A stretch of DNA of 64,000 nucleotides, taken from NCBI GenBank assembly GCA_013329055.1, contig DUKY01000007.1, positions 51,146-115,145 on the forward strand, read 5' to 3'. The notes beneath the pieces are model-generated. The model was not told the DNA's origin. It worked only from the letters and a program-made list of their open reading frames with translations, and searched no databases. Each line of letters begins with the position of its first letter. The first letter of the stretch is position 1. This document shows, piece after piece, positions 23,221 through 37,172 of this stretch. This DNA is from Nanobdellota archaeon. Its GTDB lineage: Archaea; Nanobdellota; Nanobdellia; Pacearchaeales; GW2011-AR1. Both the position numbers and the translations under genes were made by a program.

Positions 23221-23503
23221 AACCGCCAAGCCCCTGAAAGAAGATATGATTTAAATCATATTATAAACCACTGATAGGAATAGTGGACATTATTTATTTT
23301 TTTATTTAATTCCTTAAAATTTTATAAAATCCCGACGGGATTTTCCTCATAACCCATGAAAGCTTCTTTAAATTCACCCTCAAAAGTTATTCGTTCATTT
23401 ATTCGAACTTTCAGAGTTACTCGCCCGCAACTTTTAAAGTTTTTTGAATCTACTCAGATTAAACCCTTGAAATAAATATATACCTTTCTGTTTGTATATA
23501 TTA

Positions 23504-23599
23504 TGACCCCGACGGGAGTTGAACCCGCGACACCCAGATATCTCCATTGATAATTAAATCTAAGAGTCTGGTGCTCTAACCAGGCTGAGCTACGGAGCC
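23504..23599 (-). tRNA. tRNA-Lys (anticodon CUU) with a ~21-nt intron at the canonical 37/38 position
   Basis: Manual fold: acceptor GGCUCCG/CGGGGUC, D arm GCUC-AGCCUGGUUA-GAGC, anticodon stem CCAGA/UCUGG with loop CUCUUAA interrupted by GAUUUAAUUAUCAAUGGAGAU. T arm GCGGG-UUCAACU-CCCGU, discriminator A. Confidence 0.75.
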
Positions 23600-24030
23600 A
23601 TAGTAAAACATTAGTGATTTACTTTAAAAATATGTTGATTTACGTTAGCACCAGACGTAACTGGGGACGTTGAAAATTTGCCAAAAAGAAATTTTTAACA
23701 ATCAGAGAATTAAATTACAATTCTCTGAATCTAACCAGGCTGAAGCTACTGCAGCCATAGTAAAACATTAGTGATTTACTTTAAAAATATGTTGATTTAC
23801 GTTAGCACCAGATGTAAAGAGTCTGGAGACGTTGAAAATTTGCCAAAAAGAAATTTTTAACGATCAGAGAATTAAATTACAATTCTCTGAGTCTAACCAG
23901 GCTGAAGCTACTGCAGCCATAGTAAAACATTATTGATTTACTTTGGCACCAGACGTAAAGAGTCTGGGGACGTTGAAAATTTTGTAAAAAGAAATTTTTA
24001 ACGATCAGAGAATAGATTGATTGAAAATTT
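23600..24030. repeat. Tandem array upstream of tRNA-Lys: about 2.7 units of ~160 bp, each carrying a promoter-like segment, a 27-nt degenerate copy of the tRNA 5' end and a 10-bp-stem hairpin
   Basis: Repeated gcagccat (complement of the tRNA 5' end GGCUGCAG…) at ~23751-23758 and 23911-23918. Repeated cagagaattaaattacaattctctg hairpin. Confidence 0.8.
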
Positions 24031-29496: not shown

Positions 29497-29525
29497 CTCA
29501 TAATTTATCTATAAACATTCATAAT

Positions 29526-29736
29526 GGCGGTTGTGGTATACAGAAATTAAAAATTTCTGTCCCTACAGGATTAAACTGTGCCTTCGCACAGAAAGATATT
29601 AAAAATCCTGAAGGTACAGAGATTAAAAATTCTGTCCTACAGGATTAAACTGTGCCTTCGCACAGAAAAATATTAAAAATCCTGCAGGTAACGGTTATTA
29701 CATACGGTTGGGGTCAGAGCAAAGAGGGTTCGACTC
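29526..29736 (+). pseudogene. Truncated/disrupted tRNA-His copy: 5' 15 nt, then a 150-bp hairpin-dimer insertion, then a mutated anticodon/T region, with no 3' acceptor strand
   Basis: GGCGGTTGTGGTATA | 29541-29690 insertion | ACGGTTATTACATACGGTTGGGGTCAGAGCAAAGAGGGTTCGACTC, then the duplicated promoter region. Confidence 0.55.
29541..29690. repeat. Tandem dimer (76 + 74 bp) of a cruciform-like hairpin module inserted in the D-loop of the tRNA-His pseudo-copy
   Basis: Each unit has cagaaattaaaaatttctg and caggatt…ctgtgccttcgcacag…aatcctg hairpins and ends in ggta. Confidence 0.8.
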
Positions 29737-29766
29737 AAAAATTCGCTTTTTTTCTAAAACCTTAAC

Positions 29767-29778
29767 TTTTAAAAATCT
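29767..29778 (+). promoter_or_regulatory. Candidate archaeal TATA-like box for tRNA-His
   Basis: cttttaaaaatc lies about 28-40 nt upstream of the tRNA start at 29806. Confidence 0.3.
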
Positions 29779-29805
29779 CATAATTTATCTATAAACATCA
29801 ATAAT

Positions 29806-29878
29806 GGCGGTTGTGGTATAACGGTTATTACGTCCGGTTGTGGTCCGGGCAAAGAGGGTTCGACTCCCTCCATCCGCT
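29806..29878 (+). tRNA. tRNA-His (anticodon GUG) with an encoded G-1
   Basis: Manual fold: G-1, acceptor GCGGUUG/CAUCCGC (one U·U), D arm GUAU-AACGGUUA-UUAC, anticodon stem UCCGG/CCGGG with loop UUGUGGU. T arm GAGGG-UUCGACU-CCCUC. Confidence 0.75.
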
Positions 29879-30352
29879 TAATAAATCAGAGACGAACCCT
29901 GGGTTCGATGAAAAATTTTGTGGTAGAAACTTATTCTTTCAGATAAAAATTCAAGCATTGAATAAAAGAGTTTCGTGCAAGATTTTGAACATCCCTCCAT
30001 CCGCTTATTTTCTTTACAGAAAATTGCGTAAGTTCGGGAGTCTTCGACTCCACAATTCGCATTCCGTGAAAGCTTCTTTAAATCAAGGAAAATTTTGATT
30101 TATTTGAACTTTCAGAAATGCTCAATTCGCATTCCGTGAAAGCTTCTTTAAATCAAGGAAAATTTTGATTTATTTGAACTTTCAGAAATGCTCACCATCC
30201 GTTTAATAAATAAGAGGCGAACCCCGGAGTTCGATGAAAAATTTTGTGGTAGAAACTTATTTTTTCAGATAAAAATTCAAGGATTGAACAAAAGAGTTTC
30301 GTGCAAGATTTTTAACATCCCTCCATCCGCGTTTTATTTTTAAGAAAGATTT
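29879..30352. repeat. Array of 3-4 modules downstream of tRNA-His, each bounded by a copy of the tRNA 3'-terminal 12 nt (CCCTCCATCCGC)
   Basis: 3'-end copies at 30003-30014, 30195-30201 (partial) and 30319-30330. Modules 29879-30002 and 30202-30318 are ~90% identical. The middle module has a tandem ~82-bp duplication (30046-30189). Confidence 0.8.
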
Positions 30353-34174: not shown

Positions 34175-34594
34175 ATGCAAGATGTTAACAAAGTAGCTAA
34201 CGAGGCCAGAAAATCTCTAAGTAAATATTGCATGGAAGAATGCAAATCATATTGTTGCAGAAAAGGGTATATTATTTTAAAACCAACAGAGTTGGATTTA
34301 GTCATTGGAGATAAAAAAGATAAATTAATGGAAGAAGAATCATTAAGAGAATTATCTTTCTCTGGAAAATATTCATTTAATCTATCAAATTCATTTGGGA
34401 GTTGCACACAATTAAAAGATGAAAAATGTTTGATTCATCAAAATGTTAACAGACCAAGTGTTTGCAAGGAATTCCCAATTTTTATAACAGGAAAGATAAT
34501 TAGAATATCTCCAAGATGTTATGGGCATAAAGCAGGATTGCTATATCCTTTTATAAAAAAATTTAAAGAATTAGGTTATGATGTTGAGGAATAA
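34175..34594 (+). CDS. YkgJ/UPF0153-family putative Zn/Fe-S binding protein (CxxCxxCC)
   Basis: CKSYCCRKG motif and further Cys residues downstream. Confidence 0.55.
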   Translation: MQDVNKVANEARKSLSKYCMEECKSYCCRKGYIILKPTELDLVIGDKKDKLMEEESLRELSFSGKYSFNLSNSFGSCTQLKDEKCLIHQNVNRPSVCKEFPIFITGKIIRISPRCYGHKAGLLYPFIKKFKELGYDVEE

Positions 34595-34674
34595 ATTCCC
34601 GCAGGAAATTTTTATGATTTTACTCTAGATACATCTTTTTAGGCTCACCATATTTTGACTCATATGCACAGCAT

Positions 34675-34800
34675 CTACAATAAGTTTCTGTTTTGTCTTT
34701 CAAAAGATTTAGGCACATATCCGCAATTTGATTTTGCAATCGATTTTTCAAGTTGGTTAACAAATTCTTTATAATCTTTACAATCTTTTCTGCATTTCAT
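34675..34800 (-). CDS. Possible 41-aa Cys-containing peptide (MKCRKDCKDYKEFVNQLEKSIAKSNCGYVPKSFERQNRNLL) immediately downstream of the radical SAM gene
   Basis: Manual translation of the minus strand. It is below the ORF-track size cutoff and is speculative. Confidence 0.2.
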   Translation of the reverse strand: MKCRKDCKDYKEFVNQLEKSIAKSNCGYVPKSFERQNRNLL

Positions 34801-34850
34801 ATTTTTTTTATAAAATCAAACTTTAAAAAAATTCCCCTAAATTAAAATAT

Positions 34851-35963
34851 TCAAGGTATTATCTCAGGTCCAAAATATTTTTCATAATCAAAATCTTTTT
34901 GAGAGATTATTTTTTTATCAATTAATTTTTTTATTTCCGGCAAAGCAGATTGCAATTCACTAATTAAATGCTTAATTGATCTACAAACTAATTTGTCTCC
35001 GGTTTTAGGCCAAAGTTTTGCTTTTCTCCAATACATGCATCTTCCTCCGCAAATATCTTTTACATCACAAGAATCACATTCATTAACTAAAATCTTTTTT
35101 AATTTATTTGGTGAATCTTCGATTGTTCCGCAAACAAAGTCTTCGATATTATTCATTATCGGACAAGCAGAGATTTTGCCGTTAGTGGTTATTGCATAAC
35201 CTGAATGACCTGCTCCACAACGAATTAAAGTTTTTTCTTTTTTAAGCAAACTTTCAATAATTCCTAAGAAAGGATAAAGTTTCAATACTTTTCCTTCTTT
35301 CATTCTTTCAATCCAATATTTAATTAATTTTGAAGTTGATTCATTAACTTTATTTATAAAATTTGTAATTTTCTCTTTGTTAAAATCTTCCTTATAAAAA
35401 CCAATATCTAATTGCCAATGTATTGAATCAAAACCTGCGTTTATTAAATTTAAAACCTGTTCATAAATGTCAGGACAATCCTGAGCGATAGTCATTCTTG
35501 CAATTAACTCTCCGTTATATCCGTTTTTTTTCATTAAAGAAATATTTTGCATTATTTTATCATAAGTTCCTTTACCACGGTTAGAATCTGTCCTTTCTTT
35601 ATCGCCGTCTAATGAAATTAAGATTTTTGTAATTTTATTTAAATATTCTTTTGGTAAAAGGTTTAATAATTGACCGTTAGTTTGCATACGATATTTTAAG
35701 TTTAAATTTTTTAGATAATCCATTATTTCAATAATTTTATTTTTTTGCAGTAATGGTTCTCCTCCATAGAAAATTAATACGGGATTAGAATCTTTTTCTA
35801 AAAACTTTTTTAATTTTTCTAAATCAATATCTAAATCACAGGGTGCAGAAAAATCAAATTTGAATCTTTTTTCTAATCCATTCTCAAACTCTTGCATTGA
35901 TTTTTCATAGCAATATCTGCATTGCAGATTACATTTTTCTGTTAGGATAATGTGATAGTGCAT
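34851..35963 (-). CDS. Radical SAM enzyme with C-terminal SPASM/twitch domain (anSME-like maturase family)
   Basis: CNLQCRYCY (CxxxCxxC) motif. C-terminal Cys clusters CGAGHSGYAITTNGKISACP and CDSCDVKDICGGRC. Confidence 0.85.
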   Translation of the reverse strand: MHYHIILTEKCNLQCRYCYEKSMQEFENGLEKRFKFDFSAPCDLDIDLEKLKKFLEKDSNPVLIFYGGEPLLQKNKIIEIMDYLKNLNLKYRMQTNGQLLNLLPKEYLNKITKILISLDGDKERTDSNRGKGTYDKIMQNISLMKKNGYNGELIARMTIAQDCPDIYEQVLNLINAGFDSIHWQLDIGFYKEDFNKEKITNFINKVNESTSKLIKYWIERMKEGKVLKLYPFLGIIESLLKKEKTLIRCGAGHSGYAITTNGKISACPIMNNIEDFVCGTIEDSPNKLKKILVNECDSCDVKDICGGRCMYWRKAKLWPKTGDKLVCRSIKHLISELQSALPEIKKLIDKKIISQKDFDYEKYFGPEIIP

Positions 35964-35964
35964 T

Positions 35965-36507
35965 TTAAAATTTACAAAAGTTTTTTATTAATTCAGGATT
36001 TTTTACTTCCGGATGAAAGGATATTCCATAAATCTCTTTAGATTTATGTTTAATAATTGCATTATCAATATCTGTTTTGCCTAAAATTTCAAAATTATGC
36101 AATTCTTTTAATGACATATTATGCACAAAATATGCTTCGAAAGATTTTGGAAGGTTGAAAAAATCTGATTTTAATTTTACTTCTTTTAATCCGATTTCCT
36201 GGTTAAATTTTGGCTTTGCACCGAATACAAAACCGACTATATGCATACCTGCACATATTCCCAGAATTGGTTGATTAATATTTTTTATCCATTCAAATTT
36301 ATCCCCTGAGTGAAGATATTCAAAATCTTTTAGTGACGTTCCTGGAATAATTATTTTATCATAATTGTTTAAATTATCCTGTGAAAAATTTTTATAATTA
36401 ATTGTTGAAAATTGAATTTCATTTTTTAGTAAAATCTTTTCAATAGGTTTTACAAATTCTAATTCATGTAATTTTTCCTTGCATGTTGAAATAATTAATA
36501 TTTTCAT
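35965..36507 (-). CDS. Class I glutamine amidotransferase (GuaA subunit A-like)
   Basis: Catalytic Cys in GICAGMHIV and the His-Pro-Glu motif ISFHPE. About 180 aa. Confidence 0.8.
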   Translation of the reverse strand: MKILIISTCKEKLHELEFVKPIEKILLKNEIQFSTINYKNFSQDNLNNYDKIIIPGTSLKDFEYLHSGDKFEWIKNINQPILGICAGMHIVGFVFGAKPKFNQEIGLKEVKLKSDFFNLPKSFEAYFVHNMSLKELHNFEILGKTDIDNAIIKHKSKEIYGISFHPEVKNPELIKNFCKF

Positions 36508-37172
36508 TCTACATCTATTTCCATTCTCCAGGAATTTTTTTCTCCGGAAATTTTTTTGTCAGTTATATTTAAGGATTTTTTAAATAACGGGCAATTCAAA
36601 GTAAATGTTTCAAATTCTCCTCCTTCTCCGGCAGGGTGAATTTGATATTTTTGATTTAATTTTTTTACTTTATCAATAAATTCTTCGTTAATTTCTTTTC
36701 CTAACCATGATTCATCCAAAGGATAAGCAAATACCCCGACGATAATTACTTTAAATTTTAGGTTAATGATTTCATGCAAATATTCAAATTCATCTTTTTG
36801 CCATAATGGATTAAAGCATTCTAAATCCAGTTCATTACAAATTTTCTGAATTCTTGATGCCTGATAAATAGATTGCAGAGCACCGGTAACAATCCCTCCT
36901 ATGTGATATTCGTCTTTTGCTTTTTTTATTGCTTTTTTCAAATCTTTCAGTTCAATTTCTTTTTTTCCTTTAGTTTTTTGAATAATTAACGGAATTTGCA
37001 TTACTTCTGCCTGTTTTTTAGTCTTTTCAATTGAAGGCGTATGAAACATATAACTTTCTTTATTTTCAGATACGATTGAAATTAAGCATGACAATTCATG
37101 ACCTGCTTCTTTTGCTAAATAAGAAGCCATACATGAATCTTTTCCTCCGGAAAATAATACTGCAACTTTCAT
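36504..37172 (-). CDS. PP-loop ATP pyrophosphatase of the MJ0570/Dph6 (diphthine--ammonia ligase) family
   Basis: PP-loop SGGKDS and the family hallmark GEGGEFETF. 4-nt overlap with the downstream GATase. Confidence 0.8.
   Translation of the reverse strand: MKVAVLFSGGKDSCMASYLAKEAGHELSCLISIVSENKESYMFHTPSIEKTKKQAEVMQIPLIIQKTKGKKEIELKDLKKAIKKAKDEYHIGGIVTGALQSIYQASRIQKICNELDLECFNPLWQKDEFEYLHEIINLKFKVIIVGVFAYPLDESWLGKEINEEFIDKVKKLNQKYQIHPAGEGGEFETFTLNCPLFKKSLNITDKKISGEKNSWRMEIDVE

Follow-up and report, generated by a model that had tools for sequence, protein, structure and literature searches.

Whether a radical S-adenosylmethionine (SAM)/SPASM enzyme and the small cysteine-containing open reading frame (ORF) beside it make up a peptide-modification cassette is the question raised by a locus in a Nanobdellota archaeon (assembly GCA_013329055.1, contig DUKY01000007.1, positions 51,146 to 115,145). 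The whole 64,000-nucleotide (nt) stretch analysed, here called the window, carries the enzyme gene at 34851-35963 on the minus strand (370 amino acids, aa) and, starting 50 nt past its stop on the same strand, an ATG ORF of 41 aa at 34675-34800 (MKCRKDCKDYK..., MKCRKDCKDYKEFVNQLEKSIAKSNCGYVPKSFERQNRNLL). The sequence-only reading of this DNA took the ORF for a possible partner of a maturase-like enzyme, in the layout of peptides that ribosomes synthesize and that are modified after translation (RiPPs), and placed the enzyme in one operon with the glutamine amidotransferase (GATase) and PP-loop genes upstream. We consider it likely that the enzyme is instead a stand-alone member of family TIGR04084, with a fold of the anSME/CteB type and no leader-recognition (RRE) domain, that the 41-aa ORF does not encode its cognate substrate, and that the tight junctions with the upstream genes reflect packing and synteny.

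The window gene does encode a radical SAM/SPASM enzyme, from an archaeal family that is curated but uncharacterised. In a scan with NCBIfam hidden Markov models (HMMs) it matched TIGR04084 (AF0577 family radical SAM/SPASM domain-containing protein) with 312.8 bits against a cutoff of 225, a score that puts the gene far beyond chance; the alignment is full-length, with residues 5-363 on profile positions 1-339 of 347. The radical SAM core model PF04055 scored 60.5 bits (cutoff 29.5). The same protein is in GenBank as KHO50573.1, listed as a 'hypothetical protein' from archaeon GW2011_AR13 (exact-sequence look-up), the locus recurs in identical form in many metagenome assemblies, and thousands of archaeal proteins that NCBI names TIGR04084/AF0577 are 50-93% identical to it. 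A profile run against 1.84 billion cluster representatives yielded 182 at E ≤ 1e-30 (representatives of 50%-identity clusters), and a Methanoperedens-type query gave 4102 clusters (90% identity grouping) at E ≤ 1e-20. The literature searched held no paper on the TIGR04084 or AF0577 family. The sequence is already catalogued, and nothing but its local context sets the window enzyme apart from other members.

The coordinates and sequence features first described for this gene, including its CxxxCxxC motif and SPASM cysteines, are borne out by the ORF listing, and the cysteines are conserved in alignments of 20 and 66 sequences. The CxxxCxxC motif reads CNLQCRYC (residues 11-18), so that the cluster cysteines are C11, C15 and C18. 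The seven SPASM cysteines (C249, C267, C296, C299, C305, C309 and C327) are spaced C249-x12-G-x4-C267, C296-x2-C299-x5-C305-x3-C309, C327, which fits the pattern Cx9-15Gx4C...Cx2Cx5Cx3C...C predicted to hold two auxiliary clusters. All seven are invariant in the 20-sequence alignment; in the 66-sequence alignment C296 is nearly invariant (≥90%) and the other six invariant. The conserved set that we derived for the family comprises C11/C15/C18, the seven SPASM cysteines, an HWQ motif and, at the C-terminus, G-[PC]-E-[IV]-[IV]-P; the window enzyme has it complete. The C-terminal tail is present in 242 of the 243 full-length members, and most members start with MHYH. Members of the DPANN-type set carry the tail as GPEIIP and those of the Methanoperedens-type set as GCEIIP; in the window its region is 34851-34892.

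By sequence, the closest characterised relatives are maturases that modify peptides or proteins, and in this the enzyme class proposed at the outset stands. The scores, each with its cutoff, were 122.2 bits for PapB (NF047865, 340), 91.1 for SCIFF (TIGR03974, 425), 83 for QhpD (453) and 71.3 for anSME (TIGR03942, 349.45), with the NirJ and AhbC/D models lower, at 49-60 bits. Classification by HMMs, which had been left as a check, thus settles on TIGR04084 and not on the anSME, SCIFF or QhpD model. PapB ranthipeptide maturases form the top-scoring characterised family and, like the window enzyme, have no N-terminal extension (the alignment begins at residue 5); they are however encoded beside their precursor, which TIGR04084 enzymes are not, and the score falls far under the cutoff.

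Structure agrees with this placement. An AlphaFold2 model built on the 66-sequence alignment (pLDDT 91.9, pTM 0.92) was compared with the PDB by Foldseek, which put CteB (5wgg, E 7.5e-17) and anSME (4k37, TM 0.70/0.71 over the whole chain) on top; sequence and profile searches of solved structures also put these two first (CteB E 3e-20 and 2e-22). CteB, the SCIFF/thermocellin thioether maturase (PDB 5WGG), is the best match among solved structures in both sequence and fold. The family motif RCGAGH...G....CP aligns to CGSGH...G....C of CteB, with one cysteine where anSME has two, and TIGR04084 therefore conserves seven SPASM cysteines, not eight. The single-cysteine CG(A/S)GH within a shared SPASM pattern implies an auxiliary cluster I with three cysteine ligands, as in CteB (PMC8172795). 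The anSME structures (PDB 4K36-4K39) share with the window enzyme their size, the radical SAM and SPASM parts and the lack of an RRE, and anSME acts on a separate protein, the mode that we propose here, but their eighth SPASM cysteine, which completes auxiliary cluster I, is missing from the window family. No sulfatase gene was found among the annotated neighbours.

A PqqD-like leader-recognition domain (RRE) is absent. The CxxxCxxC motif already stands at residue 11, and the first strand of the model, residues 2-6, leaves no N-terminal RRE. CteB has about 100 residues of N-terminal RRE that the window enzyme does not, the alignment beginning at CteB residue 103, and alignments to the SCIFF, QhpD and CcpM maturase profiles begin at profile positions 90-104. 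No SCIFF-type peptide gene lies nearby.

Other readings of the enzyme were also considered. The GMGT synthase Gms is longer than 420 aa and has an N-terminal six-helix (COG4001) domain ahead of the radical SAM core (PMC11186832, PMC11214058); the window enzyme, with 370 aa and no such domain, is not Gms. The archaeosine radical SAM enzyme RaSEA pairs or forms a complex with ArcS (PMC11298593); its model is absent from the best 25 of the 75 NCBIfam matches listed for the window enzyme, of which TIGR04084 is the best (the RaSEA sequence was not compared directly), and no ArcS-like neighbour was seen. A role in defence was rejected, as the PADLOC pVip models match the radical SAM core alone (residues 6-144).

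If the enzyme works as its relatives do, it would bind three [4Fe-4S] clusters in total, a SAM-cleaving one at C11, C15 and C18 and, within the SPASM domain, two auxiliary ones. SAM would be cleaved reductively and a hydrogen atom then abstracted from a substrate whose gene lies elsewhere in the genome. In CteB a substrate cysteine occupies the open site of an auxiliary cluster (PMC8172795); by analogy, the substrate here is probably a cysteine-containing protein or peptide, its thiol placed on the open site of auxiliary cluster I, and the product may be a thioether-type cross-link or a related oxidation.

We gathered about 98 distinct loci of the family from genome and metagenome collections and clustered their neighbouring ORFs, adding Pfam-annotated gene contexts for further members. 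Singletons predominate among the genes directly beside the enzyme gene (38 of 86 upstream, 39 of 84 downstream). Members in Theionarchaea, Methanofastidiosum, Methanoperedens and metagenome-assembled Nitrososphaerales sit among unrelated genes, for example carbon monoxide dehydrogenase, an aminotransferase, LemA, a glycosyltransferase region or FtsZ/SecE/NusG/L11; a thermosome gene is upstream in 26 loci. The spacer downstream of the enzyme gene has a median of 68 nt, and at one locus (L003) the next gene overlaps the stop. Our search for ORFs of 15-90 aa in the flanking intergenic DNA of these loci found no small-ORF family common to independent loci, only antisense artefacts of the start codon region of the enzyme gene and near-duplicate contigs. 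Since the neighbours vary and no small ORF is shared, TIGR04084 is a stand-alone, 'orphan' SPASM family, whose enzyme is conserved at 50-65% identity without an adjacent peptide.

The 41-aa ORF itself lies in a variable spacer of 256 nt (34595-34850) between the enzyme gene and a convergent CxxCxxCC-domain gene (34175-34594, plus strand, 139 aa; PF03692, 29.2 bits). Among 5.8 billion proteins its sole match is itself (one cluster, one sequence, 41 contigs), it has no PFAM, NCBIfam or PADLOC match, and tblastn of the peptide against 24 related loci gave nothing near any radical SAM gene (best E 0.18, all elsewhere). The closest comparison is the sister haplotype L019, which is 93% identical to the window in the enzyme, 95% in Dph6 and 98% in ScpA. 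The ORF is absent there: in L019 the enzyme gene is separated from the same convergent CxxCxxCC gene by about 700 nt, in which lies a gene for a 179-aa RusA-like protein (PF05866, 6274-6813); this marks the spacer as a variable insertion point. The CxxCxxCC gene is 93% conserved in L019 and is not a recurrent neighbour at other loci; it is the boundary of the spacer and lies outside the radical SAM unit. Neither blastn nor tblastx showed the spacer to resemble a related locus or any other part of the window, whether as DNA or in translation. An origin as a remnant of the RusA-like gene of L019 or of another sequence was rejected, those searches giving AT-rich noise only, and so was an RNA element, Rfam giving one sub-threshold CRISPR direct-repeat match (22 against 37 bits, E 0.55).

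Chance is enough to supply such an ORF. In 13.9% of 5000 dinucleotide-preserving shuffles of the spacer an ATG ORF reaches 41 aa or more, and the window, with a G+C content of 23-32%, contains 55 ATG ORFs of 41-70 aa. Two of the three cysteines (C3, C7 and C26) stand directly after the start methionine, with no room for a leader. A run of seven T lies 21-27 nt past the enzyme stop, between the enzyme gene and the ORF. Oligo-T tracts function as terminators in archaea, and this one is a possible terminator, a weak argument in an AT-rich genome; neither a terminator-like hairpin nor excess RNA structure was found in the spacer (fold z-score 0.17). A second ORF in another frame (34620-34763, minus strand, 47 aa, TTG start, …YCRCCAYESKYGEPKKMYLE) overlaps the first; it is unconserved and has a codon score near zero (0.07). 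The 41-aa ORF is most likely not a substrate of the enzyme; it lies in a variable spacer, is either an ORFan confined to the strain or a chance ORF, and is perhaps not a gene. Conservation at homologous loci was the check that the sequence-only reading had set for its peptide partner, counting loss in relatives as refutation; the ORF is not conserved, so the partner interpretation is refuted by its own standard.

The upstream junctions are real. The GATase gene (35965-36507, minus strand, 180 aa) ends 1 nt ahead of the enzyme start, and its own start overlaps by 4 nt the gene of a Dph6-type PP-loop ATPase, or diphthine-ammonia ligase (36504-37172, minus strand, 222 aa). The GATase is a stand-alone, GuaA-subunit-A-like protein (PF00117, 63.3 bits; NF001975, 65 bits, under its cutoff of 198), and the PP-loop protein scores 282.9 bits with the archaeal Dph6 model TIGR03679 (cutoff 197.3) and 237.7 bits with PF01902. 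The linkage first proposed as an operon thus holds in the window; across the family it is limited to one DPANN group. A GATase orthologue is directly upstream of the enzyme gene in seven loci including the window, the spacing ranging between a start-stop overlap and a gap of 26 nt, and 10 of about 98 loci have Dph6 at most 4 kb upstream. About 90% of the sampled members, including all those outside DPANN, have neither gene nearby. Close packing is also common in this compact genome: 12 of the 42 same-strand adjacent gene pairs of the window overlap or are no more than 5 nt apart, among them the unrelated chain LMWPc phosphatase/144-aa ORF/HisRS/MgtE. The Dph6/GATase block also holds ScpA, S27ae and HisRS, which points to inherited synteny. 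We accordingly read the 1-nt and 4-nt junctions, as part of the explanation that we think likely as a whole, as packing in a compact genome and synteny of one group, not as a demonstrated pathway.

Two further observations concern variation among these haplotypes. The GATase of the window is only 61% identical to that of L019 (4451-4999), the flanking Dph6, enzyme and ScpA genes being 93-99% identical; the differences are concentrated in the central part of the protein and suggest that the allele was replaced or recombined. On some contigs the enzyme genes (variants P0123 and P0124; loci L115-L117) are mosaics of the window and L019 types that differ at one gene end only, an indication that co-existing strains recombine or that the assemblies are chimeric.

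Several observations weigh against the explanation preferred here. The 41-aa ORF has gene-like codon usage (0.34 per codon; genes 0.40±0.10, spurious ORFs -0.14±0.23), gene callers annotate it on 41 contigs, and it could be a real small gene; the window-type contigs are all identical over the ORF and spacer, so that no selection signal is measurable. The Pfam SPASM model was not reported for the enzyme at E ≤ 0.01, only Radical_SAM and Fer4_12 being listed. Substrate type and chemistry are drawn from homology alone. Finally, genes are inserted between Dph6 and GATase and never between GATase and the enzyme gene, and the GATase adjoins enzymes that are just 55-57% identical to that of the window, which could mean real coupling.

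A non-peptide substrate, be it a small molecule, cofactor, lipid or RNA, is possible though unlikely, and would make the label 'maturase-like' misleading. The gene stands alone among variable neighbours everywhere, it is very highly conserved across phyla with both termini invariant, and SPASM enzymes with non-peptide substrates exist (Gms and AhbD; PMC11186832). One member of the family (P0259, L118 17-2095, 692 aa) has an APH-family phosphotransferase domain fused to a TIGR04084-type radical SAM/SPASM enzyme without an internal start codon. The fusion is known from only one contig, of 3 kb, while about 115 loci show no APH gene beside the enzyme, and we dropped it as a functional lead. Against a non-peptide substrate stand the peptide and protein modifiers that are closest by score, ahead of NirJ and AhbC/D, the best folds, which are CteB and anSME, and the CteB-like motif for a three-cysteine auxiliary cluster I, which suits a thiol-bearing substrate; Gms, as said, is a different enzyme.

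We think it improbable that the enzyme and GATase, possibly with Dph6, form one pathway, for example one in which a component of the translation machinery undergoes a glutamine-dependent, radical-mediated modification. The seven GATase loci are a weak lead. Their GATases are 47-62% identical to that of the window, with the catalytic motifs GICAG and FHPE intact, and the loci are spread over several sub-branches within the DPANN half of the neighbour-joining tree, interleaved with thermosome-upstream loci. Against a pathway of this kind stand the absence of both genes from the surroundings of most family members, the company of ScpA, S27ae and HisRS, the frequency of abutting unrelated genes in the window and one locus (L085) where Dph6 is directly upstream of the enzyme gene with no GATase. 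A link to diphthamide through Dph2 was rejected, fragments of Dph2 being near the enzyme gene in three loci only. These are Diphthamide_syn ORFs (PF01866) of 104-200 aa about 3 kb from the enzyme gene (L025 8183-8785, L026 8276-8590 and L041 4275-4583), and they may be split or truncated Dph2 genes.

A long shot, slightly less probable still, is that in anaerobic archaea TIGR04084 is a housekeeping-type modifier of a conserved protein or cofactor encoded elsewhere, which in one DPANN group is coupled translationally to a dedicated class-I GATase beside Dph6, hinting at an undescribed glutamine-dependent radical modification tied to the translation apparatus. This would explain why tiny DPANN genomes keep the enzyme, its termini invariant, at 50-65% identity.

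That the 41-aa ORF is a real, lineage-specific precursor whose three cysteines the enzyme cross-links in a minimal RiPP cassette is highly improbable, for all its position, its gene-like codons, a Cys-x-x-Asp spacing near motifs of the PapB type and the thioethers that the enzyme's nearest characterised relatives form in peptides, because it is missing from every related locus, including that of a 93%-identical enzyme, and the family persists without RRE or neighbouring peptide.

Elsewhere in the window, direct repeats are dense at 29500-30351, around tRNA-His (29806-29879, plus strand). They comprise a 41-nt pair at 29500 and 29780 (95%), a partial copy of the tRNA (29689-29736 vs 29819-29866, 90%), two 129-nt copies (29897-30025 vs 30223-30351, 89%) and, at 30053-30192, an exact tandem duplication of 70 nt, and may be an integration-site remnant or a duplicated 3′ part of the tRNA. 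ARAGORN also called a 98-nt 'tRNA-???' with a four-base anticodon at 23503-23600 (minus strand), possibly an archaeal tRNA with an intron.

A RiPP cassette in a DPANN archaeon would have been notable, and the evidence does not support one. What the locus presents is a member of TIGR04084, a large archaeal SPASM family with no co-located partner and with unusually invariant termini, whose full-length score, invariant cysteines and termini the window enzyme shares, and from which it differs only in its group-specific context of GATase and Dph6 upstream and an ORFan downstream. The substrate of TIGR04084, once determined, would annotate this gene across DPANN, Methanofastidiosa, Theionarchaea, Methanoperedens and some Nitrososphaerales.

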